Source: Minisyncoccota bacterium (lineage in GTDB: Bacteria > Patescibacteriota > Minisyncoccia > Phycocordibacterales > UBA9973). Taken from it: a DNA stretch of 64,000 bases. Shown one piece after another: positions 3,436-22,247 of this stretch. Location of the stretch: assembly GCA_036517215.1 (NCBI GenBank), contig DATDXF010000016.1:3175-67174 (forward strand). Direction: 5' to 3'. The notes below the pieces were generated by a model. It saw nothing but the letters and a program-made list of their open reading frames with translations, did no database searches and had not been told where the DNA came from. The position numbers were made by a program, and so were the translations under genes. Every line of letters begins with the position of its first letter. The stretch's first letter is position 1.

Positions 3436-4563
3436 TTACTGCAACTTTCTGAGTGCCAAGCCGAGTGCCACGGCAAATTCCGGACCCATGTTGGTAAGTA
3501 CCTTATTTAAAAACGCCGGAGCCTCAACTTTTGAAAAGGGATGCCCTATTTCTATTTCCGCTTTAAAATTATTTGTGGCGACTTCGGGAAGTCCCTTTAG
3601 AAGCGAGCCGCCTCCGGTAAATATTACCTTACTGATGGTGCGACCATGCTTCTTCTCGTACCCCAAGAGCACGTTATTTGTTTCGGAAAAAATATAATCG
3701 ACATGCACCCTGATGATATCTGCCAAATTTTTATCCGCGGGATTCCCGAAAAGACCGAACTCTTTTTTCATCTTCTCCGCATCTGTGAACGGAATACTTA
3801 AGGATTTGGAAATAGAGTTTGTGATATCCGCTCCTCCGCGCTCTACCGTGTGGTAATTTTTCACCATCCCGAATTCTACTATCGTCAGCTTGGTCCGCGA
3901 AGCACCGAAGTCGATCAAGAGCACAGGGGAAAGCTCGTGCTCAAAATTAGCGCGAATGGAAGAAAAAACTTCAATTTCAAAAAAGGACGCGGAGAGACCG
4001 CAGCCGGATACAATGGAACGGTATTTTGCAACCGCATCGTTCTGCGTGGCAACCACCAGGACATTTACTTTTTCTGCCACACCCGGAGAAGCTTCGGCGC
4101 TGTTCATGTCTTCAAAGGAAGATTCTTTTTTGGGCAATATGAAATAATCTATGGAAACTTCGTTGACCGGAAGCGGTATGTATTTGCGCGCCTCAGTAGG
4201 GACTACGGAATCTATCTCGGCCACGGTTACCTGCGCAGGAAGCTCAATCGTAAAAATCAGGCTTGACTGCACAGGAATGGAAAGAGCGGGAGAACTCGCT
4301 GTCGCGCCGGACTGTTTTAGAATTTCCTTCAAAGCCAAAATAATTTTTTCAACCGGCGGATTTGTAACCCGTCCGGCTTCCATTTCGTTATAGGGCCCCA
4401 AGGCAATGGAGCCGTATGTTTCAAGGACCGCTTTACTGCCCTTCTTTTTTATCTCAACGATTTTAATCGCGGAAGACCCTATATCAATGCCGATAGCTGT
4501 GCTTTCCCCTCCGCGACCCACAGAGCCGAAGCCGGAAAAAAGATTTTTCAATAGATTGCTCAT
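3436..4563 (-). CDS. pilM: Type IV pilus assembly protein PilM (actin-like ATPase fold)
   Basis: 375 aa; IGIDIGSSAIKIVEI N-terminal motif and overall actin/FtsA-like pattern typical of PilM; first gene of operon. Confidence 0.8.
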   Translation of the reverse strand: MSNLLKNLFSGFGSVGRGGESTAIGIDIGSSAIKIVEIKKKGSKAVLETYGSIALGPYNEMEAGRVTNPPVEKIILALKEILKQSGATASSPALSIPVQSSLIFTIELPAQVTVAEIDSVVPTEARKYIPLPVNEVSIDYFILPKKESSFEDMNSAEASPGVAEKVNVLVVATQNDAVAKYRSIVSGCGLSASFFEIEVFSSIRANFEHELSPVLLIDFGASRTKLTIVEFGMVKNYHTVERGGADITNSISKSLSIPFTDAEKMKKEFGLFGNPADKNLADIIRVHVDYIFSETNNVLLGYEKKHGRTISKVIFTGGGSLLKGLPEVATNNFKAEIEIGHPFSKVEAPAFLNKVLTNMGPEFAVALGLALRKLQ

Positions 4564-4618
4564 CCCATATGAAATTAATTAATAAAGATTCGCTGTAATC
4601 CGTTATTCCCGCAAATTT

Positions 4619-4683
4619 CGTACGGGACACGTTTTTATTATGCTAAAATACCCTACAAGTATAGCATATACCTGTCCCGTTAG
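4619..4683. promoter_or_regulatory. Nested palindrome in divergent pilM/comF promoter region (CGTACGGGACACG ... TATGCTA-N16-TAGCATA ... CCTGTCCCGTTAG)
   Basis: Outer arms ACGGGACA / TGTCCCGT are reverse complements, inner TATGCTA/TAGCATA palindrome; same 9-mer arms recur in the rpmI and rpsZ leaders. Confidence 0.4.
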
Positions 4684-4739
4684 AAATACTCTATGATTAC
4701 AATAAACCACGAAATATTATCAATAAAATTTCTAATGGG

Positions 4740-5402
4740 ATGAGTTTTTTAGACACCATACTTGAGATAATTTTCCCGACAAAATGCGTATTTTGCGGCA
4801 AAAACGGGGACGACCTATGCCTTGAGTGCCTAAGCGGTGCGCCAGCGGCAGAGCGAGAAAGCGCAAAGTGGATATACCCAGTGTATGATTACCGTCATCC
4901 GGCCATTAAAAAATCACTATGGCTACTAAAGTATAAGGGCAAAAAAAGACTTGCCGGTGTTTTTGCGGAAACTCTTTATGAAAAAATTATAGAAGAGTTG
5001 TCCGAATTGTCGGTAATGGAAAATTTCAATCAGCCGATACTGGTTCCCATCCCTCTTGCCTCCGCGAGATACCGGGAAAGGGGGTTCAATCAGTCGGAAT
5101 TGATTTGCAAAGAGCTGATAAAAATAAATGGCGAGCGCCAGTCGGGCATAGAGTTAAAATTGGGGAATAATATCTTAACCAAGACTAAAGACACGGTACA
5201 CCAGGCTCGCATCAAGAACCGGATTGCCCGGCTTAAAAATATTGCCGGAAGTTTCGAGGTAAATAATCCGCTAGCGGTAAAAAGAAAAAACATAATTCTT
5301 ATAGACGATATCTTGACTACCGGAGCCACCCTCACGGAAGCGCGAAAAGTGCTGAAACGCTCCGGGGCGCGAAAAATAATAGCATTCACTTTGGCGCATT
5401 AG
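4740..5402 (+). CDS. comFC: ComF family protein (phosphoribosyltransferase-domain competence protein)
   Basis: N-terminal double CxxC zinc finger (CVFCGKNGDDLCLECL), C-terminal PRTase motif ILIDDILTTGATL. Confidence 0.8.
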   Translation: MSFLDTILEIIFPTKCVFCGKNGDDLCLECLSGAPAAERESAKWIYPVYDYRHPAIKKSLWLLKYKGKKRLAGVFAETLYEKIIEELSELSVMENFNQPILVPIPLASARYRERGFNQSELICKELIKINGERQSGIELKLGNNILTKTKDTVHQARIKNRIARLKNIAGSFEVNNPLAVKRKNIILIDDILTTGATLTEARKVLKRSGARKIIAFTLAH

Positions 5403-5453
5403 GGCACAGAAAAGATTACATAATGTCGTATTTAAGATGGTATAATATTTCGC

Positions 5454-6041
5454 ATGACCGGCTTTTTTGAAACAATACTACCATGGATTGATTCCTCCAA
5501 ATACATTCTGCTTTTTATCGGATGCATAGTCGAAGGACCGATCGTTATGATGGCAAGCGGCTTTCTGCTCCACCTTGGGAAATTCAGCCTACTCCCTATG
5601 TATTTGGTTTTGGTGCTGGGAGACTTTGCGGCCGATATAATATGGTATTGCCTAGGCCGGTTCGGAACCCGCCATACTATTTTCAAATACGGCCACCTGA
5701 TAAAACTTACCCCGGCGGTCCTGGAAAAGATAGAAAACCGCTTTATGAGATACCACCAAAAAATTCTCATCATTTCAAAATTAACAATGGGATTGGGTTT
5801 TGCCATGGTAGTATTAGTTGTGGCCGGAATATTTAAAGTTCCTTTCAAAAATTACGCTGTTTTGAATTTAATCGGCGGTTTTGTGTGGACGGCTTTCTTG
5901 GTTACAATAGGATATTTTTTTGGAAATGTTTACTCCGCCGTACCGGAATCGGCCAAGATTATTTTCGCTTTTGGCGTTCTTATCTTAATTATTTTCGGCA
6001 TACGTTTTGCAAATAATTATTTGACGAAAATAGAAATATAG
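5454..6041 (+). CDS. dedA: DedA/SNARE-associated family membrane protein
   Basis: 195 aa polytopic protein with DedA-type motifs (EGP...G, LGDFAADIIWYCLGRFG). Confidence 0.75.
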   Translation: MTGFFETILPWIDSSKYILLFIGCIVEGPIVMMASGFLLHLGKFSLLPMYLVLVLGDFAADIIWYCLGRFGTRHTIFKYGHLIKLTPAVLEKIENRFMRYHQKILIISKLTMGLGFAMVVLVVAGIFKVPFKNYAVLNLIGGFVWTAFLVTIGYFFGNVYSAVPESAKIIFAFGVLILIIFGIRFANNYLTKIEI

Positions 6042-10450: not shown

Positions 10451-10951
10451 CTAGTACTTAAGCGTTTCCATAGAAACTTCCGACTTTGGGTCAAAAGCGT
10501 TGGGGTCTATCTCAAGGTGTGAAATATATTTTTCTTGAACCACAAACTCCCCCAGGAACTTTAAAAAGTCTTCGTTGGCTTCCTTTTCTCCTTTTTCTTC
10601 CATATGTTCCACCGGGTGAGCTTCCGGGGTAAATTCAAAATGTCCGCAGATTTCTCCGTCTTTATAAACCCTTAAATGATATTGGTCCTGAAAATCCGTT
10701 AATTTTCTCCAGCTTAAGACCTGGTCTTCGTCCACCCAGGCGATGAAATGATTTCCAAAACCCCACTTGCTATGCAGGTGCTGCTTGAGACCCTCAAGGC
10801 TCTTGCTTGGGGCAAGCCAGCCAATATGATACTGCTGTCTTCCTTTCTTGTGCCAAATCAGCCCGCTTTTAAGCATAGCTGTCCTTATTGGCAGGAAAAA
10901 ACTATATATAAAATCCCAAATTTTCTGTTTTATTTTATCGGTAAAAGACAT
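10451..10951 (-). CDS. Hypothetical protein
   Basis: 166 aa ORF immediately downstream of HAD gene, same strand. Confidence 0.4.
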   Translation of the reverse strand: MSFTDKIKQKIWDFIYSFFLPIRTAMLKSGLIWHKKGRQQYHIGWLAPSKSLEGLKQHLHSKWGFGNHFIAWVDEDQVLSWRKLTDFQDQYHLRVYKDGEICGHFEFTPEAHPVEHMEEKGEKEANEDFLKFLGEFVVQEKYISHLEIDPNAFDPKSEVSMETLKY

Positions 10952-10986
10952 ATTACTGAAGTATTATAACATAAAACACGCTACGC

Positions 10987-12123
10987 TCAAAAAAGCATGA
11001 AAAGCAGCGAAAAGAGAGCACCTGCCAATAGCCCCGCGACTAGGCTGCTTACGAATATCATCGCGCCATAGAAAATTGCCCGTGCGGCATTTATAATTAT
11101 TTCCCGGAACATAATATATTCCAGAACTCCCTCTTGGTTGGCTTTTTCGTAAGTCATCACATCGGCTGGAATATAAATCATCTTGGTAGACAAACCGCTT
11201 GCGACATTTACCGCAAAGGCATGCGAAACGGTTGTGGCAAAAACACGGCCGAGACCTATGACGGCGTTGGCCGCCGACCCCGCCCAAATTGTTTTCCTTT
11301 TGAATTTATCCGCAAACTTGCCTATTATCAAGTCGGTCGCAAGCGATATTCCACTAGCTATCGTAGCAATCAAACCAAGCATACCGTAGTCTCCCACTAT
11401 GCGCAGAAACACAAAGATGGACCATATTATTCCACTAGCTCCAGTTTCTATCCCGTAAGCAATAAAAGCAAGAGTGTCTCCTAAAGAACGGTTTTTGAAA
11501 ATTCTTTTCAGAGAAAACTCGGTATCCACTTCTTCTTCCCGCGACAAAAAGAGCGGAGCGGCTGAAACCAAAAGAAGCGCGGAAGCCAGTATAAATATAA
11601 ATTTGAAACCAAAACCAACTATAAGCAATCCGCCGATAAAAGGTCCCAGGGCATGGAAAGTCGCAGTGAAGAATTTAAGTTTGCCCACCTCCATCCCCCT
11701 TTCTCCTTTCTTGGTAATCTTAGACAAGTCTAGGTGTAGCGCTGTAAAGTACAAAGCTCGTTTTGCTCCGGCGGTAAAAAGCAGGAACCCAAAAACATAT
11801 AAGCTGCCATTAATCTGCAGTAAGTATAAAAGTAGGAAAAAACATATTTCAAAGACTTTGCTACCCAGAATGGTATGCTTGATGCCAAGTTTTTTTATTA
11901 CTTGTGTCGCCGGAATTACGAAAAGCGCATGAAGCGCATTTTCAACAGCGAAAAAGAGGAAAACTTGGGGCAAGGAATACCCTAGGTTGAAAAGATAAAT
12001 GGGAATAAAAACGCTCACGAGGGCGAGAGCGAGGGCCCGAATGGAAGAACTGGCATACATCTCCCGGAGCTCGTTGCCCCGTAAGATATGAAATTGCCCT
12101 ATATTCATGTGATGAGACTCCAT
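10987..12123 (-). CDS. MFS-type transporter
   Basis: 378 aa, ~12 predicted TM helices. Confidence 0.6.
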   Translation of the reverse strand: MESHHMNIGQFHILRGNELREMYASSSIRALALALVSVFIPIYLFNLGYSLPQVFLFFAVENALHALFVIPATQVIKKLGIKHTILGSKVFEICFFLLLYLLQINGSLYVFGFLLFTAGAKRALYFTALHLDLSKITKKGERGMEVGKLKFFTATFHALGPFIGGLLIVGFGFKFIFILASALLLVSAAPLFLSREEEVDTEFSLKRIFKNRSLGDTLAFIAYGIETGASGIIWSIFVFLRIVGDYGMLGLIATIASGISLATDLIIGKFADKFKRKTIWAGSAANAVIGLGRVFATTVSHAFAVNVASGLSTKMIYIPADVMTYEKANQEGVLEYIMFREIIINAARAIFYGAMIFVSSLVAGLLAGALFSLLFMLF

Positions 12124-12180
12124 GCGAGAATATTATAGCAAAAATCTCACGTTTTTGTAGTTCCCTTAAAATTTATCTTG

Positions 12181-13404
12181 TCATACAGTAACTTCGTAGG
12201 GTTGCGGCCTTTCCCATCTGTATAAAACAATCATTCCGATTATTATAAAAATAGTCATACTGCCTGCCGCGAACCTATAAGCCAGCCCGCCTGTTCCGAA
12301 AAAAGATATTATCCCTCCCCAGGTTAAAGGCCCTACCAGCGTCGCGAAACGCTCCATAATAGTATAGAAGGAGAAGCCGTATCCCATATTGCCTTTATTG
12401 AGCAGGGTGCTTAGGTAAGATCTGGAGATAGTCCAGGACGAGCCAATTAGGAGCCCAGTCAAGGGACTTATGATTGCCACGGTCAGGAAATTCGGGGCAA
12501 TTGCAAGAATAGGCACTGCGATCAGCCAGCCGCCTAAAATTATCTTTAAAGTCCGGAGAGCGCCTATCTTGTCACCCACGGAGCCCGCGACAATCCCGCC
12601 CACTGCCGACATGCCTAAAATCGCGATGAGCAAAATGGATTTTGCCGCATCGGGGGTGGCAAACACCCGGTCCAGATATATGGAATAGTTATTGGTAATA
12701 GTTAACAGCGCGTCGTTGAAAAAGAAAAAGGCGACGAGCATGGGAGTGGCCGCGGATACGGTGAGAAAAGATACCAAATTTTTTCTGGAAATTTTTGCCT
12801 CGTTTTTAAATGCCGCAATACTGATATCCCCGTTTTCTTTTTTGGGCTCCTTGAAGAAAATCATCATCGGGAGCGCAAGAAAGAAAAATAGCAGAACCGA
12901 TGGCAGAAGCGGGGCGACCCTGGAGCCGGCCAAAGGCAGCGTAATTAAGATGCCCGCCACTTGCCCCAAGGAATTGGCAAATTGCCCGATTCCGGAAACT
13001 CTGGATAAATGCTCCGAATCCGCGATGTCCATAAGCATGGGGTTGTAAAACACGAAAGAAAATTGATAGAAATATTGCCCGATTAAAAACAACAGGGCTA
13101 TCGGCATCATATACTGAGTGCCGAATCCGGCCAGCACTGCGGCTGCCCCATAGCTTAAAAATGTTCCCGTAGTTGAAATATTTAAAAATAATTTTCTTTT
13201 TCCGTACTTGTCAGTGAGAGCAGCCAAGGGAGGCGCGGTAAAAAGCAGGATGACCGTGGAAAGAGCAAAAATTGCGTTATACCAAAAGTCCGAAAGCCCG
13301 GCGTCAATCACTATCCACTGCGCGAAGTATAAAAGAAAATTCACGAATATGATGGAGTTCGCGAAATCGTACAGCGCCCAAAGGAATAACTTTTTTTTGT
13401 CCAT
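12181..13404 (-). CDS. MFS-type transporter
   Basis: 407 aa polytopic membrane protein, MFS-like topology. Confidence 0.6.
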   Translation of the reverse strand: MDKKKLFLWALYDFANSIIFVNFLLYFAQWIVIDAGLSDFWYNAIFALSTVILLFTAPPLAALTDKYGKRKLFLNISTTGTFLSYGAAAVLAGFGTQYMMPIALLFLIGQYFYQFSFVFYNPMLMDIADSEHLSRVSGIGQFANSLGQVAGILITLPLAGSRVAPLLPSVLLFFFLALPMMIFFKEPKKENGDISIAAFKNEAKISRKNLVSFLTVSAATPMLVAFFFFNDALLTITNNYSIYLDRVFATPDAAKSILLIAILGMSAVGGIVAGSVGDKIGALRTLKIILGGWLIAVPILAIAPNFLTVAIISPLTGLLIGSSWTISRSYLSTLLNKGNMGYGFSFYTIMERFATLVGPLTWGGIISFFGTGGLAYRFAAGSMTIFIIIGMIVLYRWERPQPYEVTV

Positions 13405-13575
13405 AGATATTAGTCGTTTTGGAGATAATAATATTTCAATATACGGCAGTTAATACAAAACAAAATGCTGGCGGGACAGTAGGGTTAAGTGCCCAGAGGG
13501 ACAAGCTGTGTAAGAATATTCTAGCATATTTGCATCAGTTAAATCAATCTAAGTACTCGGGTCGGGGTCTAGTTT

Positions 13576-13938
13576 TTGAAAAGTTATGCTATTATATTTA
13601 TTATAATGGATTGGATATTAATTGGGCTCCTTGGTCTTAATTTCGTTCTCTCAACTACTGCTGATAGCATTTCCAAATTATGGGCGATGCATCCGGGTTC
13701 AAAGTGGTCCTTTATAACTATTGGGCTTAGTATTCTTACGACTATCAGCTGGATGCTTGTTGTCAGGCGGGCAGGACTTACAGCAGGGAGCGCAATCATG
13801 CTACTTCTTACCATGATTTCTACCGTGCTCATAGGGTTATTTGTTTTCAAAGAGCAGCTTACCCGAGGACAAGGCGTAGGTGTTGCTCTCGGTTTTATCG
13901 CTGCATTATTTTTGCTGAATATTGTTCGGATTCCTTAA
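13576..13938 (+). CDS. Small multidrug resistance (SMR/EmrE-like) 4-TM transporter
   Basis: 120 aa, four hydrophobic helices. Confidence 0.55.
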   Translation: MKSYAIIFIIMDWILIGLLGLNFVLSTTADSISKLWAMHPGSKWSFITIGLSILTTISWMLVVRRAGLTAGSAIMLLLTMISTVLIGLFVFKEQLTRGQGVGVALGFIAALFLLNIVRIP

Positions 13939-13945
13939 AACCAGT

Positions 13946-15097
13946 TTAGGCACTCGGGTCGGCATACTTTCCGACAGCATATAAGGCCTTCGGTATAAGG
14001 GGCAGCCCGCCTATAACAAGAATCAGCTGGGGAAGATGGCCAAAAATAAGATAAGCGATAAGAAGAATACCTGATCCAAGAAGAATACCCGCTGCTCGCG
14101 CGAACTCAAACGCCATTGTACCGCCGAGCACGTTACCCCGAAGCTCGGTACCCATACGTGCTTCCCGACTAACATTTATTATCTCTGTTGCCAATACATG
14201 GAAAACAGTTATAAATAAAAATGCCACAGGCAGATGTACTAGACCGTACCCTACCCATGATAAAATACCTATGCAAAGCGCAAGCCATATAACCCAAGAG
14301 CGGTTATGATCTTTTACCCAACCCGCCAAGTACGCTGCTATCACACTCAGTATGGCAATGCCGGCAGTAATCCAAATCGAAATATCAAATGACCTAGAAA
14401 GTGTAAGAATGATTAGCGGAAGACCCACGATCTTAAGTGGATGACTTGGTTCAAAATTAGCCAGAAACATAGGCATGGAAATTGTTTTTAGATTTTTCCA
14501 GAAGGAAAGACGCGGCAACTCTGGCGTTGGAATCCCACTCAAGGGAATAGTGCTGCCAAGAAGAACTGCGCTCCCGATCAAAAATAGATATAGAAATGAA
14601 GCCTGGGTATGTAGAAATATCCCAGTAATAGCTGCCACAAGACCGCTTAGTGTGTGAAGCGAGGTGATTTGCGCCGAAGAATACCCTGGAGCGCTTGAAG
14701 CTCCTATCACAGTAATCATGATTGTATTCGCGCCGACAACATAAAGCGTATTGCCTATGTTTTCAATAACATGCAGGAAAAAAAGGATCGCGTAGAAATA
14801 GCTATGTTCTGGTAGGAGATAAAAAATACCCACCAAGGCAATAACTTTAAGTACGAGCCCGAAGGTCATGCTGGGAACGAGTCCCCATTTTTTAAATAAT
14901 GCAACCGAAGGTCCGAATCCGACACTTTTCATAAGAAGTGTTGCAGCATGACCTATAACTACGAACAGCAAAGTTCCCAAAATAGATCCCGTTTTTGCGT
15001 ATATAAGCAGTGCACCAAACGCGAAAAAGAGCTGCTCGGTAAATTTATGGAGCAGGGTGTGGAAAAAATATCGCTTGCGTATCTGGTCGTTAGGCAT
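13946..15097 (-). CDS. Polytopic membrane transporter (MFS-like)
   Basis: 383 aa, ~11-12 TM helices. Confidence 0.5.
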   Translation of the reverse strand: MPNDQIRKRYFFHTLLHKFTEQLFFAFGALLIYAKTGSILGTLLFVVIGHAATLLMKSVGFGPSVALFKKWGLVPSMTFGLVLKVIALVGIFYLLPEHSYFYAILFFLHVIENIGNTLYVVGANTIMITVIGASSAPGYSSAQITSLHTLSGLVAAITGIFLHTQASFLYLFLIGSAVLLGSTIPLSGIPTPELPRLSFWKNLKTISMPMFLANFEPSHPLKIVGLPLIILTLSRSFDISIWITAGIAILSVIAAYLAGWVKDHNRSWVIWLALCIGILSWVGYGLVHLPVAFLFITVFHVLATEIINVSREARMGTELRGNVLGGTMAFEFARAAGILLGSGILLIAYLIFGHLPQLILVIGGLPLIPKALYAVGKYADPSA

Positions 15098-15125
15098 GTG
15101 CAGAGAATTATAGCATCTAAGTTTA

Positions 15126-16268
15126 TTAAGGAGCTAAAGCTCTGTCAAGAATAGGTTTAACGACTATAATACTTAAAATTCCTACAAGCAAAACATATTG
15201 TATGTCGACCCCATAATGTACTAGTGCCGCACTTGAAAAGAAAACGATCATAGCTCCGAAATCGGCACCCGCTTCGCCGAAAAAATGAAACCAGAGAGTG
15301 CTCTTAGTGCGCTTGGCCAAATTATATAGAAGAGTGTCGAACGGCTCCTGATAAAATACAAGCACGAATGCCAGTATAAATTGCGCAACAACTATTCCTG
15401 TAACATCCGTAACGAAAAATGCTCTTGCAATGAGGGTAAAGATAAGGCCGATTGATCCGTAGAGGAAAATTTTCTTGCTGTGTCCACCATCAACTAGCTT
15501 TCCTAAGGTTAGATAAAGTATGGCGACAAAAAGTAATTTCAATGCGATCAACCAGCCGAATTGGCTTAGGCTTGTTGCCAAGAAAAATATGGTAACAACC
15601 CATACGAATGCTTCGGCCTGGACCTTGATGCCATCTCCGAGCATCAGCCAGAAACCGCGAAAATCAATAAATTTAAACGCTTCCTTGAATCCCATAACAG
15701 TGTTGGCGGTAAAGTCTGGGATATACAAAAGCGGTAAAACTCCTATAAGCATTACTATTGTGGCGACTACGTACAGAGATCCATATCCGAAAGTAATTAC
15801 TATAAAGCTTCCAACTATAGGAGCGGCAATGCCGAACGTGAGAGCGAATATTTCTCGAACGGCTATTTGACTGCCTCTGCTATCAATATCTCCTAATGCT
15901 GCATAGAGCGAATGAAAGGGCAGGTAATACGCGATATCGGAAATAGCTAGATAAAAAATCAGTATCCAGAACCATAGTCCGATAGTATGAACTTGAGCTA
16001 AAACCGGAAATATTCCTGCGTATACTATAACCCCTAAAATAAACGAGGGCTTAAGTCCAAGGCGCTGTGTCCACCAAAGCGAAAGTGGACGCAGAAAAAA
16101 ACGTAGCCCAAAGCTAGTACCCCAAACCATAGCAACGGCTGGAAGCGAGATACCTTGTTGTAAAAGGTAGATCGGGCCGAAAATAGAAACTATTTTATTA
16201 CAGAAATTCCATAACCCGATATGGATATGAATGAGATTGATGGGGTTTTTCAGAAAAGTTAATATCAT
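15126..16268 (-). CDS. MFS-type transporter
   Basis: 380 aa polytopic, paralogous in topology to neighbours. Confidence 0.55.
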   Translation of the reverse strand: MILTFLKNPINLIHIHIGLWNFCNKIVSIFGPIYLLQQGISLPAVAMVWGTSFGLRFFLRPLSLWWTQRLGLKPSFILGVIVYAGIFPVLAQVHTIGLWFWILIFYLAISDIAYYLPFHSLYAALGDIDSRGSQIAVREIFALTFGIAAPIVGSFIVITFGYGSLYVVATIVMLIGVLPLLYIPDFTANTVMGFKEAFKFIDFRGFWLMLGDGIKVQAEAFVWVVTIFFLATSLSQFGWLIALKLLFVAILYLTLGKLVDGGHSKKIFLYGSIGLIFTLIARAFFVTDVTGIVVAQFILAFVLVFYQEPFDTLLYNLAKRTKSTLWFHFFGEAGADFGAMIVFFSSAALVHYGVDIQYVLLVGILSIIVVKPILDRALAP

Positions 16269-16277
16269 TTCCGTTGT

Positions 16278-16369
16278 TGGCGGAGCCGGGCGGATTCGAA
16301 CCGCCGAGGGGTTTTAAAGCCCCTGCCTCTTTAGCAAAGAGGTACGTTAGACCACTCTGACACGGCTCC
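16278..16369 (-). tRNA. tRNA-Ser (anticodon GCU), type II, CCA encoded
   Basis: Minus-strand reading GGAGCCG...CCTCT-TTGCTAA-AGAGG...long variable arm...GGCGG-TTCGAAT-CCGCC-CGGCTCC-G-CCA; 7/7 acceptor pairs. Confidence 0.8.
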
Positions 16370-16458: not shown

Positions 16459-16544
16459 GGAGAGATGGGTGAGTGGTTTAAACCAACAGTTTACTAAACT
16501 GTCGTCCCCTAAAAGGACCGAGGGTTCGAATCCCTCTCTCACCG
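16459..16544 (+). tRNA. Type II tRNA with apparent anticodon ACU (Ser-like; G73 discriminator, 3-bp D-stem, 17-nt variable arm), CCA not encoded
   Basis: GGAGAGA-TG-GGT-GAGTGGTTTAA-ACC-A-ACAGT-TTACTAA-ACTGT-CGTCCCCTAAAAGGACC-GAGGG-TTCGAAT-CCCTC-TCTCACC-G; acceptor 6/7 (A3:A70 mismatch). Confidence 0.6.
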
Positions 16545-16589
16545 CATTGACAACTTAGTATCGGTGTGTCCTTGTTGCTTATGGCAACA

Positions 16590-16611
16590 GTGCGACCCGA
16601 GTATGTAAAAT
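16590..16611. repeat. Left copy of imperfect direct repeat GTGCGACCCGA-GTAT-GTAAAAT (attL-like)
   Basis: 11-mer GTGCGACCCGA plus GTAT..AAAAT shared with 21721-21761; abuts recQ stop codon. Confidence 0.45.
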
Positions 16612-18422
16612 CATTTAAGAAAAATTCTAGCTAAACGTAATTCTTCATATGAATAATCCTCCCCCAGAATTTCACGTACAGGAGCCAATAAAATACCACC
16701 AGTTTTTTTAAATGCTCCTGTGATTATTTCAAGTCTTTCATTTGAAGGTTTTAAATATGAAATATCTAATTGTGAATCAGTGGCAAAAATTTTTTCAATA
16801 TGACTCACGATGGTGCTGATAGACAATCCACGTCTTTTTGTTATTTCATCGATAGAAAACTTTTGCAGTACTAATTTTTTGGTTTCATCAAAAGTTGAAC
16901 CAGTATATGTGGATTTTGTTTTCGCTTCCGTTTTATAAGTTTCTACATATTGATTAATAACAGACATAAACTTTCCTCCGAACTGCAAAAGTTTCCTATC
17001 TCCGACTCCGCTGATTTCCAAAAACGCCTCTCTAGTCCGTGGAAAATGAGTTGCCATTTCGCGCAAAGCTTTATCTCCGAAAATCATATATGGCGGGAGT
17101 TTTAATTTAGACGCCTCTTGTGTTCTTATTTTCCTTAATTCTTCAAATAATATAGAGTCATATGCTTTATTTTCACTAGAGATATAGGTTCGTGGTCTAA
17201 CAACCTTAAGATTTACTCTATATGTTTCTAGCGGAGTTTGCGCTACGCATCTATCGCAATTTCCACAATTTGCCTCCTTGTATTCTTCATTGAAATAGCG
17301 AAGTAAAAATCTACGACGACACCCCTGGAGATTCCCATATCGTAAGACATATTCTAAATTTTCTTGTGTTTTTTTCTGTTCTGCCGCATCCGCTATATCC
17401 TGTATAAAATAATCATGCTTAAATTTATCGGCATACGAGAAAAATAAAACACACTGTGCAGGCAATCCATCGCGTCCCGCTCGACCAGTTTCTTGATAAT
17501 ACCCTTCAACTGACTTTGGTAAGCTGTGATGAATGACAAGTCGCACATCAGGCTTATCTATCCCCATACCAAACGCAATGGTCGCAACCATAATATTAAT
17601 TTCATCTCGGATAAATTTCTCTTGGTTATCTTTTCTCGTTTTTGAATCCAGACCAGCATGATAGGCGGCAGCTTTGAATCCACGATCGTTCAATTTATTT
17701 ACTAGTGTTTCCGTATCGTTGCGGGAAAAACAATATATAATTACACTCCCATCTCGATATTTGTTTAGTAACGCAAGAATTGACTTAAAAGAATCCTTTT
17801 TTGGCAAGACTTCATAACTCAGATTGGGACGATTAAAACTGGAAATAAAAATTTGAGGACTTTCTAGGCTCAGTTGTTTTACGATATCTTCACGCACTTT
17901 TTCTGTAGCAGTGGCAGTAAGTGCAATAATCGGAATTATAGGAAATTTCTTTCGCAATAATTTTAAATTCCGATAATCAGGCCTGAAATCATGTCCCCAT
18001 TCTGAAATGCAGTGAGCTTCATCAATAGCAATCAAACTTATTTTTAAAGTATGCAAGAAGTCTTCAAACCCCGGCACAGCTAATCGTTCAGGAGCTATAT
18101 ATAAAATTTTTAATTTCCCTGTTTTAGCTTTGTCCATAATACTGACAATTTCTACTGGAGAAAGTGTGCTGTTGATAAGGTCAGCCGTGATGCCGTTTGT
18201 ATGTAGGGCATCAACCTGATCTTTCATAAGGGAAATAAGCGGAGAAATAACAATGGCAATGCCTTCCATCATAAGTGCGGAAAGCTGGAAACAAAGAGAT
18301 TTTCCTCCGCCTGTCGGCATGAGCACGACGCAATCCTTGCTCTCCAATACTCGCTCAATAATTTCTTTCTGAAGCGGTCTGAATTCTTCGTATCCGAAAT
18401 ATTTTTTCAATATATCTTTCAT
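16611..18422 (-). CDS. recQ: ATP-dependent DNA helicase RecQ
   Basis: 603 aa; DEAH box, CISEWGHDFRPDY, zinc-binding CxxC...CxxC, RQC and HRDC-like C-terminus. Confidence 0.85.
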   Translation of the reverse strand: MKDILKKYFGYEEFRPLQKEIIERVLESKDCVVLMPTGGGKSLCFQLSALMMEGIAIVISPLISLMKDQVDALHTNGITADLINSTLSPVEIVSIMDKAKTGKLKILYIAPERLAVPGFEDFLHTLKISLIAIDEAHCISEWGHDFRPDYRNLKLLRKKFPIIPIIALTATATEKVREDIVKQLSLESPQIFISSFNRPNLSYEVLPKKDSFKSILALLNKYRDGSVIIYCFSRNDTETLVNKLNDRGFKAAAYHAGLDSKTRKDNQEKFIRDEINIMVATIAFGMGIDKPDVRLVIHHSLPKSVEGYYQETGRAGRDGLPAQCVLFFSYADKFKHDYFIQDIADAAEQKKTQENLEYVLRYGNLQGCRRRFLLRYFNEEYKEANCGNCDRCVAQTPLETYRVNLKVVRPRTYISSENKAYDSILFEELRKIRTQEASKLKLPPYMIFGDKALREMATHFPRTREAFLEISGVGDRKLLQFGGKFMSVINQYVETYKTEAKTKSTYTGSTFDETKKLVLQKFSIDEITKRRGLSISTIVSHIEKIFATDSQLDISYLKPSNERLEIITGAFKKTGGILLAPVREILGEDYSYEELRLARIFLK

Positions 18423-20542
18423 ATAAGTGAATTACTCTTTAATTTTTTATAAAATTTTTTTCGCTTTTTAAATTGATGATTGAGAAATTCTATCTTCTCG
18501 TCGTGAAAATCAATAATTTGTTTTATGCCTTCTCCGCGAAGTCTGCCGATATATTGTACCAGTTTTCCTTCAAACGAAAATGGAAATGCAAGCACTATCG
18601 TATCAACGCCGTGCACATCAAATCCCTCGCCGAGCAGTTGTCCGGTGGCAAGGAGCACTTGAAAGTTGCCTGCTTTAATTTGGTCAAATTTTATCTTTCT
18701 GGAACGCGCGCTATCGTCGCCAGAAACAGTAATGATTTCGGTTTCACCCCGCAGATATAAGTTGAGTATTTCAATATGTTCTTTGCGCTCGGTAAGCACC
18801 AGGACTTTTCTTTTTGATTTTATTTCCCTAAGAATTGCTTGTACCACCAATTCATTTCTCGCAGAGTCAAACGAAATCACTTTTGCAAGTGCTTCATAGT
18901 GATCTATTTTATAGCGAAACGGCAGAGTGATTTTTGTCGGATGAATGCTTACCTCAAATGTTTTGTTGTCTGACATATTAAAAGATTTTATTTCAGCAAT
19001 AACTGGTCCAATCATAAACTCAGTAATTTTTTCGCTTCCATATTTTCGTTCATGAGTTGCTGTAAGTCCAAAGCAATATCTGCTTTCCAGTAACATAATC
19101 AATTCCCTGTATGTTTTTGCGGGAATGTGATGACACTCGTCAATAATTATTACACCGAAGGAATTCTTAATTTCTTTTAAGTTTTTATATCTCATAAGAC
19201 TTTGTAGTGTAGCAATTGTGACTTGTTTTCCAATCTTTTTTCGTGTCCCCGAAATCGTCCCAATCTGCGTTTTTGGAATGCCTAAAAATTGTTCTGTGCG
19301 TTCAACCCACTGGGAAAGCAGTTGATTTCGATTTACAAGAATAAGTGCGGGTAATTCGAGGCGCGCTATGATTTCTAGGGCAATGACAGTCTTTCCAAAT
19401 CCGGGCGGCGAGACAATAATGCCATTTGTTTTATTTTTAATAATTTCAAGTATTTTTTCTTGTTCTTTTCGAAGTGTAATACTGCTCTTAAACTTTATAA
19501 CTTTATGTTTTTTATATTCTTCTATGACTTTATAAGTAATATTTTTCTCTTTAAGGTAATTTGTCAGTTTTTCAAGAAAACCTCTGGGAAGCGAGATCTC
19601 ATCCGTGCGATCTTGTATTAAGTTGAAATATTTTTCTATGCCAAATACGGATTTACCCAGTTTCTTTTTTGTAGCATATTCCTTGTTAAAAAGATTAAGC
19701 TCTTCTTTTATAAATGAACTAATTACTGATGAAATTTCCTGCTTCTTAATCCGTATCGAGCCATCCAAAACAATATGTACGCAAGAATTATTCAGTGGTT
19801 GTTCATCAGTACCACTGTGTGCAAATAAAAAATCATAAACAGAATCTAATTCTTGAGCCGTGTGTTTATGGCTTGTTTTTAAAAATTCCCATTGATTATG
19901 GTATGGGTTAAAGTTATCATAAAAATAAAATAAAGAAGCATTATGCTTTACGCATTCGCCCTGAAGCGGTAATGCGATTAAATTGCCAAACCCGCCTTCA
20001 GTTATAGTATCTTGGTTTGGAAATAACCGATCAAAACTAACTTCTTTTGCAAATTCAGAATAACCAAAAACCTTTCTTATGATTTCCAGCAAAATAGCTC
20101 GTGACTTCCAGCATGGATATTTTTCTTCAAAGAAAATCCACACGTGGGCGCCATTTCCTGAGCGGGAAATTTCTGTATATGCTTTTAGATTTAGGTTAAT
20201 GCATGCACTCATAAATTTCTGGCTGTCAGTTTTCCAGTCTGCCTCATCAAAATCAGCAACAATAAAATAAGAAGTATTGTCAGGAAGTATTGGATATATG
20301 CCAATAGTTTCTTTGCCTAAAAAATGATTTAGTAAAGTCTCGTCCGTAAGTGGAATTAATTTTTTATTTTCAAAATCTTTTATTGTTCCACCCCTTGCCC
20401 TGTGAGCATTGAACTCATTCCAATCAAAGGAGTACGCGGGAGACCAGCCGCTTTTATCATTTTTTTGCCACCGTCTGGCATAAACATCAGTACGAGCATT
20501 AAAAAGATTATGGTAAATGGTCAGCTTTTCTTGGTTCGTCAT
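18419..20542 (-). CDS. Fusion protein: N-terminal archaeo-eukaryotic Prim-Pol domain + C-terminal SF2 (ResIII/DEAH-type) helicase
   Basis: AEP motifs I (FIVADFDEADW), II (SGNGAHVWIFF), III (FDRLFPNQ...GNLIALP); then Walker A PPGFGKT, DECHH, LTAT, HELICc-like QYIGRLRGEG; stop overlaps recQ start (4-nt). Confidence 0.7.
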   Translation of the reverse strand: MTNQEKLTIYHNLFNARTDVYARRWQKNDKSGWSPAYSFDWNEFNAHRARGGTIKDFENKKLIPLTDETLLNHFLGKETIGIYPILPDNTSYFIVADFDEADWKTDSQKFMSACINLNLKAYTEISRSGNGAHVWIFFEEKYPCWKSRAILLEIIRKVFGYSEFAKEVSFDRLFPNQDTITEGGFGNLIALPLQGECVKHNASLFYFYDNFNPYHNQWEFLKTSHKHTAQELDSVYDFLFAHSGTDEQPLNNSCVHIVLDGSIRIKKQEISSVISSFIKEELNLFNKEYATKKKLGKSVFGIEKYFNLIQDRTDEISLPRGFLEKLTNYLKEKNITYKVIEEYKKHKVIKFKSSITLRKEQEKILEIIKNKTNGIIVSPPGFGKTVIALEIIARLELPALILVNRNQLLSQWVERTEQFLGIPKTQIGTISGTRKKIGKQVTIATLQSLMRYKNLKEIKNSFGVIIIDECHHIPAKTYRELIMLLESRYCFGLTATHERKYGSEKITEFMIGPVIAEIKSFNMSDNKTFEVSIHPTKITLPFRYKIDHYEALAKVISFDSARNELVVQAILREIKSKRKVLVLTERKEHIEILNLYLRGETEIITVSGDDSARSRKIKFDQIKAGNFQVLLATGQLLGEGFDVHGVDTIVLAFPFSFEGKLVQYIGRLRGEGIKQIIDFHDEKIEFLNHQFKKRKKFYKKLKSNSLI

Positions 20543-20550
20543 ACATAATT

Positions 20551-21600
20551 TTATTTCTTCTTATACCTCGTCGTTCGTCCCTGCCCGATGCGTTCCACTT
20601 TTTTCAGCCGTAGAAGAGTATTGAGTGCTTGCGATACAGTAGGGCGTGCAACTTTAGTGACTTTTGAAATTTCACCAGGCGTTGCCTCCGGCACTTTTAA
20701 GAGATATTGCCACACTAAAAGTTGTTTCGGAGAAAGAAGTTTCTCAATATTTTCTTTTGATAATAATTCAATTGCTTGCCTTGCTTGGGTAAGTAGAGCA
20801 GTGAAAAAGAATTCAAGCCATGGCATAATATTTGAGTTGTCAGTTTTTAAAGTTTTCTGGCTTTTACGAAGAGCTATGTAATATTCCGCTTTATTGTCTT
20901 CAACTAATTTCTCATGCGAAACATATGGCATATATGCATAGCCGGCCTTGAGCATCATTAAATTTGTCAGCACACGAGAAAGCCTGCCGTTACCATCTTG
21001 AAAAGGATGAATGTTTAAAAACTCTACGAGAAAGTTGCCGATAATAATGATTGGATGAATTTCTTTTATAACAACGGCTTCTCTTGTCCACTCTACCAAC
21101 TCAAGCATTTCTTTCGGCGTAAGCCACGCAGGTGTAGTATCAAATAATACGCCAATAGATTGACCAGCTTCATTCACCATTTCAACCCTGTTTTCACCTT
21201 TTTTATATTCACCTCGGTGAAGTTTATCTTTCTCAACATATTTTAAAAGTTCTTTATGAAGATGCTGAATACTGCTTTCTGAAAATGGTATCTTGTCATA
21301 AGAGTTGAATACGTTTTCAAGCAGTTCATAGTATCCTCGCACTTCCTGCTTGTCCCGATCGGTGAATTTTTGCATAGAAAGACCACGCATCATTTTTTCG
21401 ATGTCTTCATCGGAGAGCTTAGCTCCCTCGATACGAGTTGATGCACCAGTTGATGTAACTAAAACCGAACGCTTCAACCGTCCAAGTGCCTGTGGATTTA
21501 TTTCCGCTCCACCAATCCATCTGCCTTTTAATTCATCAATTTGATTGATGAATGCCCATAAATTTTGTGGTATATTTTCAATGCGTTTATTGTAGTTCAT
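20551..21600 (-). CDS. Fic/Doc family protein with C-terminal winged-HTH
   Basis: Canonical Fic motif HPFQDGNGRLSRVL; C-terminal wHTH-like segment; 8 nt upstream of Prim-Pol-helicase gene. Confidence 0.8.
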   Translation of the reverse strand: MNYNKRIENIPQNLWAFINQIDELKGRWIGGAEINPQALGRLKRSVLVTSTGASTRIEGAKLSDEDIEKMMRGLSMQKFTDRDKQEVRGYYELLENVFNSYDKIPFSESSIQHLHKELLKYVEKDKLHRGEYKKGENRVEMVNEAGQSIGVLFDTTPAWLTPKEMLELVEWTREAVVIKEIHPIIIIGNFLVEFLNIHPFQDGNGRLSRVLTNLMMLKAGYAYMPYVSHEKLVEDNKAEYYIALRKSQKTLKTDNSNIMPWLEFFFTALLTQARQAIELLSKENIEKLLSPKQLLVWQYLLKVPEATPGEISKVTKVARPTVSQALNTLLRLKKVERIGQGRTTRYKKK

Positions 21601-21713: not shown

Positions 21714-22247
21714 CTAAGAGGTGCGACCCGACTGGTTCGAGTCCCAAGTATACCGCAAAATTTCGGGTAAAGAATTTCCGCCAAAAAATGCGCCCGCGCG
21801 AAGCGCGGGTGATGTGGCCGAATCCGCACCAAACCCAAACCCCGCCAGGATTTTCCACGCTCCGCGTGGCTCAAAAAGTATGGTTCGATTCAAAATTTTA
21901 AAGTTCGAACCGACTTTTTGGAACAAATGAAGATTTTCTTCATTTGTTTTTTCGTTTGCCAATTCTGCATTGGTAATATTGTCCTTTAGGAATTTTTCTG
22001 TAAGTTCGAACCGATTATGAGATTTTTTCTCAAAAGCTGATAATTTCTCTTTGAGAAGCTGTTTAGAGCTAACGAGCGCACTTTTTGCATCGCGATATTC
22101 CTCTAGTGAAAGTGCGTTCTCTAAATACGCCGACATTAGCTTCTCTATTTTAGAATCCAAAAGAGAAATTTCGGCTTTTGTGCTTTGAGAAAAAATCTCA
22201 CTCGATTGGACGGCCAACGATTGATCCTTTTTGTTTTCTTCAATCAT
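21714..22247 (-). CDS. Hypothetical coiled-coil protein (C-terminal third doubtful)
   Basis: Plausible start MIEENKK at 22245-22247; residues 1-125 look like a real coiled-coil protein; C-terminal part runs through a GC-rich hairpin/terminator region. Confidence 0.3.
   Translation of the reverse strand: MIEENKKDQSLAVQSSEIFSQSTKAEISLLDSKIEKLMSAYLENALSLEEYRDAKSALVSSKQLLKEKLSAFEKKSHNRFELTEKFLKDNITNAELANEKTNEENLHLFQKVGSNFKILNRTILFEPRGAWKILAGFGFGADSATSPALRAGAFFGGNSLPEILRYTWDSNQSGRTS
21721..21761. repeat. Right copy of imperfect direct repeat GTGCGACCCGA-[ctggttcgagtcccaa]-GTAT-accgc-AAAAT (attR-like), with T-loop-like GGTTCGAGTCC
   Basis: Direct comparison with 16590-16611; extra 16+5 nt relative to left copy. 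Confidence 0.45.
21789..21812 (-). terminator. Rho-independent terminator (CCCGCGC-TTC-GCGCGGG then ATTTTTT on minus strand)
   Basis: 7-bp GC stem, triloop, T-run; lies inside the 3' part of ORF 21714..22433. Confidence 0.5.

Follow-up and report, generated by a model that had tools for sequence, protein, structure and literature searches.

The physiological role and the partners of IEE, a protein of E. coli O157:H7 (ECs_1305 / Z1568), are debated: IS excision, end joining and the 'immobilising' of transposons have all been considered. We know of no partner protein for it. IEE is a Mn-dependent DNA polymerase that carries out microhomology end joining in vitro, and its SF2 domain hydrolyses ATP in a DNA-dependent manner and did not unwind DNA in vitro (PMC9943667). 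The Mn-dependent polymerase and end-joining (MMEJ) activities, together with transposase-dependent stimulation of IS excision, are known only for the E. coli protein (PMC9943667). Z1568-like proteins are one of the established AEP families (PMC5862659), and a Prim-Pol domain joined to a helicase has been reported as the most prevalent architecture among non-CRISPR homologues of CAPP (Zabrady et al. 2021, PMC8211822). An analogy has also been drawn with eukaryotic DNA polymerase theta, in which an SF2 ATPase and a microhomology-joining polymerase share one polypeptide (PMC11724360). The analogy is functional only, since the folds are unrelated (family A versus AEP) and the domain order is reversed.

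We analysed a 64-kb stretch of DNA (the window) from a Patescibacteria metagenome-assembled genome, in which an ORF with exactly the limits first proposed for it encodes a 707-aa protein. A profile search matched this protein to three Pfam models, AEP-TOTE (PF22548; 263.9 bits, E = 1.6e-78, curated cut-off 27), ResIII and Helicase_C, bearing out the original prediction of a single polypeptide that fuses an AEP domain of the Prim-Pol clade to an SF2 helicase-type ATPase. E. coli IEE matches the same three models (PF22548, 329.2 bits, E = 1.7e-98). BLASTP aligned the two proteins at 32% identity over 738 aa (E = 9e-120) in a single alignment of query residues 1-701 with IEE residues 45-773; they are collinear end to end, including the SF2 ATPase. 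We assign the 707-aa protein, from a Patescibacteria (Candidatus Paceibacterota) host, to the IEE family ('Z1568-like' AEP, Pfam AEP-TOTE), in which an AEP-fold DNA polymerase is joined to an XPB/UvsW-like SF2 ATPase. The SF2 partner had been called unusual. That view is contradicted by the full-length match to an AEP-SF2 fusion that has already been characterised, by the standing of the Z1568-like family and by the prevalence of Prim-Pol-helicase architectures among CAPP homologues.

Both proteins share the layout of AEP domain, linker module and SF2 ATPase, and both genes sit in horizontally acquired regions. The 707-aa protein differs in being 79 aa shorter, in lacking the roughly 44-aa N-terminal extension of IEE, in its shorter linker and in its Patescibacteria host. 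Its gene is flanked by fic and recQ, whereas IEE has two genes upstream, one inovirus-Gp2-like and one DUF3987/YfjI, and is surrounded by IS elements; the scanned ORFs of the window included no IS element or transposase. At 32% identity, the substrate could be a different one.

Table 1. Features of the IEE-like gene and its surroundings (positions in the window)
Feature	Position	Strand	Evidence
IEE-family (Z1568-like / Pfam AEP-TOTE) polymerase-ATPase gene, 707 aa	18419..20542	-	ORF, Pfam, BLASTP
AEP (Prim-Pol) catalytic domain, residues 5-234	19841..20530	-	Pfam E = 1.6e-78; CAPP Prim-Pol fold match
Metal ligands D97, D99, D171	20252-20254, 20246-20248, 20030-20032	-	IEE alignment, conservation
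Nucleotide-binding H133	20144-20146	-	IEE alignment (H178), conservation
Y83	20294-20296	-	Position of IEE Y128
Conserved beta/alpha module between AEP and ATPase domains, residues about 255-345	19508..19780	-	AlphaFold secondary structure, conservation
SF2 ATPase core (XPB/Rad25-, UvsW-, RadD-like), residues 355-700	18443..19480	-	Pfam, PDB, Foldseek, motifs
Walker A K384 (GFGKT)	19391-19393	-	Invariant motif
Motif II DECH, residues 468-471	19130-19141	-	Invariant motif
Motif III TAT 494-496; motif VI QxxGR 663-667		-	Invariant motifs
RecQ-family helicase gene, 603 aa	16611..18422	-	Pfam; NCBI 'RecQ family ATP-dependent DNA helicase', HEY4513237.1
ATGA stop/start overlap, IEE-like gene and recQ	18419..18422	-	Read from sequence
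Class II Fic AMPylase with C-terminal winged HTH, 349 aa	20551..21600	-	Pfam Fic, PADLOC SoFic, motifs
Perfect TATAAT hexamer (candidate promoter), 30 nt upstream of Fic start codon	21631..21636	-	Sequence; 23% GC spacer
GC-rich hairpin then T run (terminator-like), upstream of Fic promoter region	21793..21809	-	Sequence
tRNA-Ser (GCU), downstream boundary of three-gene unit	16278..16369	-	ARAGORN
Class II tRNA (long variable arm), anticodon ACU	16459..16545	+	ARAGORN; Rfam tRNA 54.3 bits

Catalytic domains of the IEE-like protein

The three AEP motifs were found as predicted: motif A is D97-F-D99, motif B is S126...G131-A-H133, and motif C is F170-D171 followed by R172 and P175. All three are invariant across an alignment of 43 homologues. 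Residues D97, D99, D171, H133, Y83 and K384 correspond to D142, D144, D216, H178, Y128 and K451 of IEE, which are its named catalytic residues other than the arginine finger R735. The mapped set comprises the carboxylates that bind metal, the His that binds nucleotide, the Walker A Lys and the Tyr found in both proteins in place of the ribose-sensing His. It is invariant or nearly so in the 43 homologues, with D97, D99, D171, H133 and K384 strictly invariant.

An AlphaFold model of residues 1-350 (pLDDT 77) returned an AEP fold, not the non-AEP fold that would have overturned the original prediction. The six best Foldseek matches were all CAPP Prim-Pol (E = 4e-13, target TM 0.73-0.77), with 7nqe at the top, followed by LigD PolDom and Prim-PolC. 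A sequence search of the PDB likewise found the Prim-Pol domain of CAPP (7nqd/7nqf, E about 2e-14). CAPP, above all its 'CAPP-Helicase' type and non-CRISPR homologues (PMC8211822), is one of the closest known systems; the closest solved AEP structures are from CAPP (7nqe, 7nqd, 7nqf and 7p9j), and the PADLOC profile 'PrimPol, CAS-associated' (PDLC01465), a CAPP_A-type AEP, matches the 707-aa protein at E = 1.5e-71. Unlike CAPP, the gene lies outside a CRISPR-Cas operon: no CRISPR array and no interspaced or tandem repeats were found across the 64 kb, and no Cas domains among the scanned neighbours (Pfam). MpCAPP has TPR and PriCT domains and demonstrated primase activity; both domains are absent from the 707-aa protein. 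The label of primase is not established: a term search of the IEE paper found no report of priming and a Pfam scan of the 707-aa protein found neither a PriCT nor a Zn-finger domain.

The C-terminal half carries complete SF2 motifs, as had been claimed, and Q663, G666 and R667 of motif VI are invariant in the 43 homologues. Its description as 'DEAH/ResIII' was half right. The ResIII assignment stands (Pfam, E = 2.5e-31), while motif II reads DECH, and it is RecQ, encoded next door, that has the DEAH box. 'Helicase' may also be a misnomer, given that the SF2 domain of IEE is an ATPase without unwinding activity in vitro (PMC9943667). A PDB sequence search of this half found XPB (E = 3.6e-24), and Foldseek found XPB, UvsW, RadD and Hef. 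The SF2 DNA translocases archaeal XPB/Rad25, T4 UvsW and E. coli RadD are the best sequence and fold matches to residues about 250-700; unlike the 707-aa protein, they have no polymerase domain. The NCBIfam XPB model is matched only partially (94.6 bits against a cut-off of 610). Because scores fall far under family cut-offs, the SF2 half is a distinct SF2 branch. pRN1 ORF904 and the D5-like replicative primase-helicases were rejected as counterparts, as the SF2 half is XPB-like, not SF3, DnaB or MCM, and the PriCT and Zn-finger models are unmatched.

The beta/alpha module between the two domains contains 11 residues that are invariant in the 43 homologues (K279, L282, N283, N286, Y289, G296, Y305, F306, P319, G321 and F322). 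It likely corresponds to the N-terminal domain of XPB-type helicases, and the Foldseek alignments to archaeal XPB, whose chains have 437-442 residues, extend over about 480 columns.

A three-gene unit in a widespread family

The IEE-like gene is the middle member of a compact Fic-IEE-RecQ transcription unit with an 8-nt spacer between fic and the IEE-like start codon and a 4-nt overlap with recQ. The unit is poorer in GC than its flanks (GC3 0.29-0.33 versus 0.39-0.56). Judged by sequence, the TATAAT hexamer is a candidate operon promoter, and the terminator-like hairpin would insulate the unit from transcription upstream. The unit adjoins two tRNA-Ser-type genes. The ACU tRNA (anticodon loop TTACTAA) lies 66 nt downstream of the recQ stop codon and is also found beside the cassette in three other loci (L010, L012 and L013); the tRNA pair is also 3′ of RecQ in L010 and near RecQ in L013. 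A literature search did not find a Fic-IEE(-RecQ) cassette described.

IEE-type proteins form 4989 clusters at 50% identity and occur on plasmids and islands in many phyla. Full-length homologues are present on 98 plasmids, among IS elements, recombinases and toxin-antitoxin genes. The family is almost absent from phages: none of 50,697 phage records held a full-length homologue, and IMG/VR contained only 4 loci with IEE-type homologues. The original prediction implied a replicative role: an integrated plasmid or phage-like element would use the protein as its primase-helicase, and RecQ would be its second replication helicase. Mobile-element replicases do include AEP-helicase fusions, pRN1 ORF904 among them (PMC11724360), the unit is low in GC and next to tRNA genes, and 6 of 36 species-representative loci have a serine recombinase close to the homologue. 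However, the low-GC unit holds three genes only, with no integrase, Rep, partition or structural gene among them, and no significant flanking direct repeats were found around it. The undetected priming module and the scarcity in phages also speak against replication, as do the IEE ATPase, which does not unwind DNA, and a domain order that puts the ATPase behind the polymerase (PMC9943667, PMC11724360). We consider a replicase extremely unlikely.

Neighbourhoods were sampled at the 36 species-representative loci and at 66 metagenome loci. The flanks of the IEE-like gene vary between loci. Clustering of neighbours in the 36 loci gave as recurrent families Fic, serine recombinase, RecQ, a SWIM protein and a few short ORFs, several of which lie within the helicase gene on the opposite strand. 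This result bears on membership in a TOTE (TPR, OB, TBP, Effector; PMC12458937) conflict system, in which the protein would be an effector deployed against invading nucleic acids by TPR-cold-shock and TBP sensors. The top-scoring Pfam model bears the name 'TOTE conflict system, AEP domain', and NCBI gives one homologue (P0103) a corresponding name, but E. coli IEE outscores the window protein on that model and lies outside any such system. The genes scanned between 9.4 and 29.3 kb contained no TPR, CSD/S1 (OB) or TBP domain, and neither a TPR-cold-shock/S1 gene nor a TBP gene is recurrent in the 36 loci. We therefore rejected TOTE membership as very unlikely.

Fic and RecQ as neighbours

The upstream gene matches Pfam Fic (E = 1.7e-14) and MarR_2/TrmB HTH models, and its product has the active-site motif HPFQDGNGRLSR and the inhibitory motif STRIEG. 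Fic lies immediately 5′ of the IEE-like gene in 23 of the 36 species-representative loci and in 17 of the 66 metagenome loci, and 22 of those 23 Fic partners retain the active-site motif. Fic and IEE identities are discordant between loci, yet adjacency is kept. In two other lineages, a Saccharibacteria metagenome-assembled genome (L007) and an Arcobacter plasmid, AbiEi/AbiEii fill the upstream slot. As a partner of the IEE-like gene, Fic is conserved more than RecQ is; the original prediction had overlooked it.

SoFic is said to have been described by Millman and colleagues in 2022 as a Fic anti-phage defence that consists of one gene. The PADLOC SoFic profile matches the window Fic over its full length (E = 3.8e-42). 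Both are class II Fic proteins with a C-terminal wHTH, and the catalytic and inhibitory motifs are intact in the window protein. It scores only 45.5 bits against a cut-off of 550 on the NCBIfam SoFic equivalog, which indicates that it is not a SoFic orthologue. Further, SoFic works alone, whereas the window Fic is tightly linked to an IEE-type gene.

The downstream RecQ has a DEAH box, Zn-binding and HRDC domains and an extra C-terminal HTH_40 (Pfam); no RQC winged-helix match was found in its 603 aa (Pfam). It falls just under the cut-off of equivalog TIGR01389 (629.9 versus 640.2 bits) and passes that of subfamily model TIGR00614 (534.6 versus 219.8). The 4-nt overlap noted in the original prediction is real and recurs in L010 and L013. 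A 'dedicated' RecQ, in contrast, is no feature of the family: RecQ adjoins the IEE-like gene in only 4 of the 36 loci, plus the window, and the linkage is limited to a few close Paceibacterota relatives. Its geometry there ranges from overlap or gap to about 3 kb of intervening genes (L044 and L058) or a convergent RecQ on the other strand (L091). The window RecQ is of the ordinary type of many Patescibacteria, which is also found in housekeeping contexts (L045 and L046). Since linkage is patchy and the RecQ ordinary, the adjacency could be positional and not functional.

These data also bear on a chromosomal housekeeping repair operon, in which IEE and RecQ would give this bacterium, with its small genome, an alternative route of end joining or gap repair that has no connection to mobile elements, and Fic would be incidental. 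Microhomology end joining by IEE in vitro, the ATGA coupling shared with L010 and L013, the wide distribution of this RecQ type and the core chromosomal content of the rest of the window (FtsH, SecY, RNR, RecG and tmRNA) are in line with such an operon. It is nevertheless improbable: most loci have no RecQ, the conserved neighbour is Fic, the composition of the unit is atypical in the window, flanks vary, some homologous copies are interrupted by in-frame stops, and plasmid copies sit amid IS and toxin-antitoxin genes.

Proposed function and significance

The best explanation of the locus as a whole, to which we give a probability of about 80%, is a Patescibacteria IEE-family polymerase-ATPase with IEE-like biochemistry and with Fic and RecQ as partners. 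By analogy with IEE, the protein would be a template-slipping, Mn2+-dependent DNA polymerase, which would pair 3′ single-stranded tails through short microhomologies and then extend them, while its ATPase domain would grip the upstream duplex instead of acting as a processive helicase. Likely substrates would be broken or gapped intermediates from mobile DNA, as in transposase-dependent IS excision. RecQ may unwind DNA 3′-5′, laying bare the single-stranded tails or taking apart branched intermediates. The Fic AMPylase-wHTH, the usual partner in this lineage, is probably a toxin-like effector or a regulator of the module; of all the steps proposed here, this one is the weakest.

A more tentative idea, which we think possible but doubtful in full, is that IEE-type polymerase-ATPases are the constant partner in two-gene, toxin-linked cassettes directed against mobile elements. 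The upstream slot would then hold alternative NMP-transferases with a wHTH domain or partner protein, namely a class II Fic AMPylase in Patescibacteria and AbiEi/AbiEii in L007 and the Arcobacter plasmid. RecQ would have been recruited by one Paceibacterota subclade as a third, translationally coupled component.

The AEP-SF2 fusion is already established and experimentally characterised, and to it the 707-aa copy contributes no more than an example from Patescibacteria. We regard the Fic-IEE(-RecQ) cassette as a lead of modest weight. The strongly recurrent, catalytically intact Fic-wHTH neighbour of the gene in Patescibacteria, whose genomes are small, and the coupled RecQ of one subclade are testable candidates for partners of IEE-type enzymes, and the Fic-IEE context suggests that toxin-like NMP-transferases may be linked to DNA end processing.

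Domain structure and family of the 707-aa protein

The predicted fusion of an archaeo-eukaryotic primase (AEP) domain to an SF2 helicase in one ORF was borne out by Pfam domains (see table), invariant motifs and structure matches. In an alignment of 43 homologues (50-85% identity), the AEP residues D97 and D99 (motif A), S126, G131 and H133 (motif B) and D171 (motif C) were invariant, as were the SF2 residues K384 (in GFGKT), D468, C470, H471, T494-A-T496, Q663, G666 and R667. The SF2 helicase motifs were complete, as claimed, but the "DEAH" label did not hold: motif II is DECH, and the DEAH box sits in the downstream RecQ. The possibility of a non-AEP fold in residues 1-350 was checked with an AlphaFold model (pLDDT 77) and a PDB search, and the fold is that of a Prim-Pol. 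All six best matches were Prim-Pol domain structures from the CRISPR-associated Prim-Pol of Marinitoga (7nqe, 7p9j, 7nqd and 7nqf; E=4e-13 to 9e-12; target TM, 0.73-0.77), followed by LigD polymerase domains, Prim-PolC and S-2L PrimPol. The C-terminal 450 residues of a full-length model (pLDDT 79.4) matched archaeal and eukaryotic XPB, T4 UvsW, RadD and Hef, in agreement with PDB sequence matches.

In the IS-excision enhancer (IEE) of E. coli O157, an AEP domain of the "Z1568-like family" forms the N-terminal part and an SF2 helicase domain the C-terminal part of one polypeptide (PMC9943667). With ECs_1305 of the Sakai genome as the comparison sequence, BLASTP gave one collinear alignment (32% identity, 738 columns, E=9e-120) spanning the AEP domain, linker and ATPase. 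IEE matched the same Pfam models (AEP-TOTE, 1.7e-98) and also the PADLOC "PrimPol, CAS-associated" profile at 2.5e-147, versus 1.5e-71 for the window protein. IEE residues D142, D144 and D216 correspond to D97, D99 and D171, H178 to H133, K451 to K384, and Y128, which stands in for the ribose-sensing His (PMC9943667), to Y83; the named residues mapped exclude the arginine finger R735. The full-length collinear alignment, shared Pfam models and residue equivalences place the window protein in the IEE family, of which it is, judged by sequence, a full-length member.

Within the Prim-Pol clade, the Z1568-like proteins count as an established AEP family (PMC5862659). The CAPP paper named a "CAPP-Helicase" type and reported that non-CRISPR homologues most often combine Prim-Pol with a helicase, typically in mobile and transposable elements (PMC8211822). 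The SF2 partner, thought unusual in the original prediction, thus belongs to an architecture long known in the IEE family (PMC5862659, PMC8211822), to which the window copy adds a further member.

A search of 1.84 billion cluster representatives with residues 1-350 returned 4989 clusters (50% identity) at E<=1e-3 and 552 at E<=1e-30; many of the clustered homologues are 700-980 aa long. A word-indexed search gave >7900 matches, the best 120 of which had nearly all the same architecture and, where named, came mostly from Patescibacteria. Full-length homologues were present on 98 plasmids from many phyla, and only four IEE-like loci were found in IMG/VR. No full-length homologue was found in 50,697 phage records, where the helicase half alone matched; a phage origin of the gene was rejected, phage matches being limited to that domain.

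Some homologues are longer by about 400 residues that match no Pfam family (L030, 4491-7871; P0246, 1128 aa; P0254, 1104 aa; L-numbers denote homologous loci and P-numbers single homologous proteins). The extension is C-terminal in L030 (Bacteroidota) and N-terminal in P0254, where the AEP domain begins near residue 375. In-frame stops were found in 4 of 37 loci of the first set and in 2 of 83 matching loci of the viral and metagenome sets. A single stop in an otherwise well-conserved homologue was seen in L010 (8001-10130, at conserved R148), L012, L019, L036, L122 and L052. Such stops fit an accessory gene; the interrupted copies could be pseudogenes or assembly errors.

The three-gene unit and its surroundings

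The window comes from the chromosome of a Candidatus Paceibacterota MAG. Fic, the IEE-like gene and recQ form one compact minus-strand unit surrounded by core genes (RecG, RNR, FtsH, SecY, adenylate kinase and tmRNA). The Fic-to-IEE spacer is 8 nt, and the IEE-like gene overlaps recQ by the tetranucleotide ATGA, confirming the 4-nt stop/start overlap noted originally. The Fic protein matched the PADLOC SoFic profile over its full length (3.8e-42), with active-site motif HPFQDGNGRLSR and inhibitory motif STRIEG. The unit is bounded upstream of Fic by the 23% GC spacer and the terminator-like hairpin, and downstream of recQ by two tRNA genes.

Features of the window and of the 707-aa protein
Feature	Position	Strand	Details
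Fic gene	20551-21600	-	349 aa; class II Fic AMPylase, C-terminal winged HTH; Pfam Fic + MarR/TrmB HTH; HEY4513239, NCBI Fic family
IEE-like gene	18419-20542	-	ORF, 707 aa; HEY4513238, NCBI DEAD/DEAH box helicase family
AEP-TOTE (PF22548)	residues 5-234		Pfam E=1.6e-78
ResIII	residues 355-499		Pfam E=2.5e-31
Helicase_C	residues 567-667		Pfam
recQ	16611-18422	-	HEY4513237, NCBI RecQ family
Perfect TATAAT	30 nt before Fic start codon		within 23% GC spacer
Terminator-like hairpin	21793-21809		GC-rich; upstream of Fic
ORF, 239 aa	21714-22433	-	no family match
ACU tRNA	16459-16545	+	class II (long variable arm, Ser-type); loop TTACTAA; Rfam 54.3 bits
tRNA-Ser(GCU)	16278-16369	-	ARAGORN call
Four tandem genes	10987-16268	-	378, 407, 383, 380 aa
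ORF, 492 aa	32530-34008	-	no Pfam match
tmRNA	34563-34963	-	Rfam 133 bits
ORF, 921 aa	43119-45884	-	weak TraG-D_C, HerA, mad8-type ATPase matches

GC3 of the three genes was 0.29-0.33, versus 0.39-0.56 for genes on either side. Because these values lie below both flanks, they suggest recent acquisition of the trio or its allelic replacement from a lower-GC relative. The GC3 of the window points to recQ as island cargo; in relatives, trio GC3 equals flank GC3.

Profile scans of the region found no integrase, Rep, cas, TPR-OB or TBP genes around the trio. CRISPR association was rejected, there being no arrays in the window. An 11-nt repeat, TCGGGTCGCAC, lies just past recQ and upstream of Fic; it was rejected as a pair of att sites, its score of 22 falling within the shuffle range (mean, 19.4; maximum, 27), and no other flanking repeats of >=14 nt were found around the trio. 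The 3' end of the 239-aa ORF crosses the terminator-like hairpin. Its product weakly resembled the C-terminal part of a large serine recombinase encoded near the L002 IEE homologue (pairwise E=8e-6, 23% identity); a five-recombinase HMM gave E=0.04, and tblastn of recombinases against the window found nothing. The ORF may be a decayed serine recombinase or no gene at all.

The ACU tRNA adjoins a normal tRNA-Ser(GCU) and is kept in L010 (11967-12055), L012 (10808-10897) and L013 (13389-13476). As far as is known, few bacterial tRNAs other than tRNA-Arg(ACG) have A34; its deamination to inosine, if it occurs, would let the ACU anticodon read AGA too. The Rfam gathering-threshold scan of the window listed the ACU tRNA and tRNA-Ile and did not list tRNA-Ser(GCU). 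Just past the tRNA pair, three of the four tandem genes have MFS transporter matches, and the run is by appearance a paralogous transporter array. The tmRNA tag predicted by ARAGORN, ARSNIFRKLRTRLKNIWPA, is basic and does not end in the customary hydrophobic, Ala-rich stretch; this prediction may be mis-framed. The 492-aa ORF, which lies in the lowest-GC stretch of the window (0.347), matched the PADLOC candidate-defence profile PDC-M28C (E=4.9e-20) and may represent another accessory or defence locus. The weak matches of the 921-aa ORF point to a coupling-protein or HerA-like ATPase.

Gene neighbours of IEE homologues

Linkage was scored in 36 non-redundant loci, most of them from GTDB species representatives and the remaining few added by exact-protein look-up, using tblastn with the window proteins and all-against-all clustering of neighbouring ORFs. 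Fic was linked in 23 of the 36, almost always on the same strand and 6-33 nt upstream. A serine recombinase was linked in six loci, RecQ in four (L009, L010, L013 and a truncated copy in L037) and a small convergent SWIM zinc-finger gene in four (Pfam SWIM, 3.8e-7). A few further clusters of small ORFs were each shared by 3-6 loci, and several of these run antisense within the helicase gene. In a further sample of 80 metagenome loci (42-75% identity), Fic was directly upstream in 17 of 66 evaluable loci. Linkage to Fic is far above chance. It does not reflect simple vertical inheritance, since flanks vary between loci and Fic and IEE identities are discordant (74-76% versus 44-45% in L027 and L028; 52% versus 67-73% in L012 and L036). 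The catalytic motif was kept in 22 of 23 Fic partners, the exception being a contig-end fragment, so that all complete partners retain it; the inhibitory motif was kept in 19.

The SWIM protein (~110 aa) is encoded directly downstream of the IEE-like gene in L002 (10117-10440), L012 (10097-10432), L016 and L017, the position held by RecQ in the window, and the gene was also seen in at least one metagenome locus (L054, 6472-6723).

The upstream slot is held by an AbiEi/AbiEii pair in two unrelated lineages, a Saccharibacteria MAG (L007) and an Arcobacter plasmid. The AbiEi-like and AbiEii nucleotidyltransferase-toxin genes lie on the same strand as the IEE homologue (L007, 6070-7966; L049 [CP129951.1], 4361-5883), a placement that parallels the Fic-wHTH gene of Patescibacteria. 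Neighbours of plasmid homologues included IS3, IS630, IS110, IS66 and Tn3 transposases, a TniQ gene, a trio of tyrosine recombinases, and RelE/ParE and VapBC toxin-antitoxin pairs. The E. coli homologue neighbours an inovirus-Gp2-like gene and a YfjI/DUF3987 gene; the short genes upstream of it showed no homology to those upstream of the Massilia homologue.

The nearest RecQ homologues (73-82% identity) were all near Fic and/or an IEE-like gene, in varied arrangements. Among the metagenome loci, a close RecQ lies 2.9 kb from the IEE-like gene in L058, with three opposite-strand genes between, and is convergent with it on the opposite strand in L091. The order in L044 is IEE, three other genes and RecQ, without Fic; in L043 it is Fic, an unrelated 135-aa ORF and RecQ, without IEE. 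That ORF was considered as a decayed IEE fragment and rejected, no similarity being found. More distant RecQ orthologues (L045 and L046, 65% identity) occupy housekeeping contexts, as would suit a core gene. ATGA coupling was common to the window, L010 and L013, and the varied arrangements and contexts in relatives therefore restrict it to a small subclade rather than the family as a whole. A "dedicated RecQ" is accordingly not a general partner, being linked in 4 of 36 loci versus 23 for Fic. L044, which also has the IEE-like gene, bears a diversity-generating retroelement pair (bAvd accessory protein and reverse transcriptase; 10481-11915) 2.7 kb downstream of the RecQ gene.

Predicted activity and relation to known systems

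As a DNA polymerase, the AEP domain of IEE depends on Mn2+, is error-prone and tolerates dislocation of primer and template; the full-length enzyme joins 3' overhangs with >=4 bp of shared homology (PMC9943667). Its SF2 domain is a DNA-dependent ATPase that does not unwind and stabilises upstream-duplex binding; IEE promotes transposase-dependent IS629 excision (PMC9943667) and, according to a Chandler preprint, the excision of a large class of ISs transposing via a circular intermediate. The term "primase" is not established for the IEE family: a Pfam scan detected no PriCT or Zn-finger module in the 707-aa protein, and a term search of PMC9943667 returned no report of priming.

Family membership, intact active sites and operon structure are established for the window protein at the sequence level; it has the sequence-based features of the IEE family, and its activity is predicted. 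By analogy, the enzyme would process DNA intermediates, broken or gapped, that arise from mobile DNA. Where it is co-encoded, the 3'-5' helicase RecQ would expose 3' tails or dissolve branched intermediates. Fic would be a putative toxin-like effector or regulator, the most tentative step of this scheme.

The TPR-OB and TBP partners that define the TOTE system were searched for near the window gene and not found, so the Pfam name AEP-TOTE should not be taken to place the gene in that system. The catalytic domain is of CAPP type, but the CRISPR context is missing. The helicase class and priming module that define a replicative primase-helicase are likewise missing.

No description of the Fic-IEE(-RecQ) cassette of Patescibacteria was found in the searchable literature, and genomic context makes it a modest lead. 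On a broader reading, to which we give a probability of roughly one in four, IEE-type enzymes may be the constant part of anti-mobile-element cassettes that are linked to a toxin, either Fic or AbiEii, and one subclade would have added RecQ to them.
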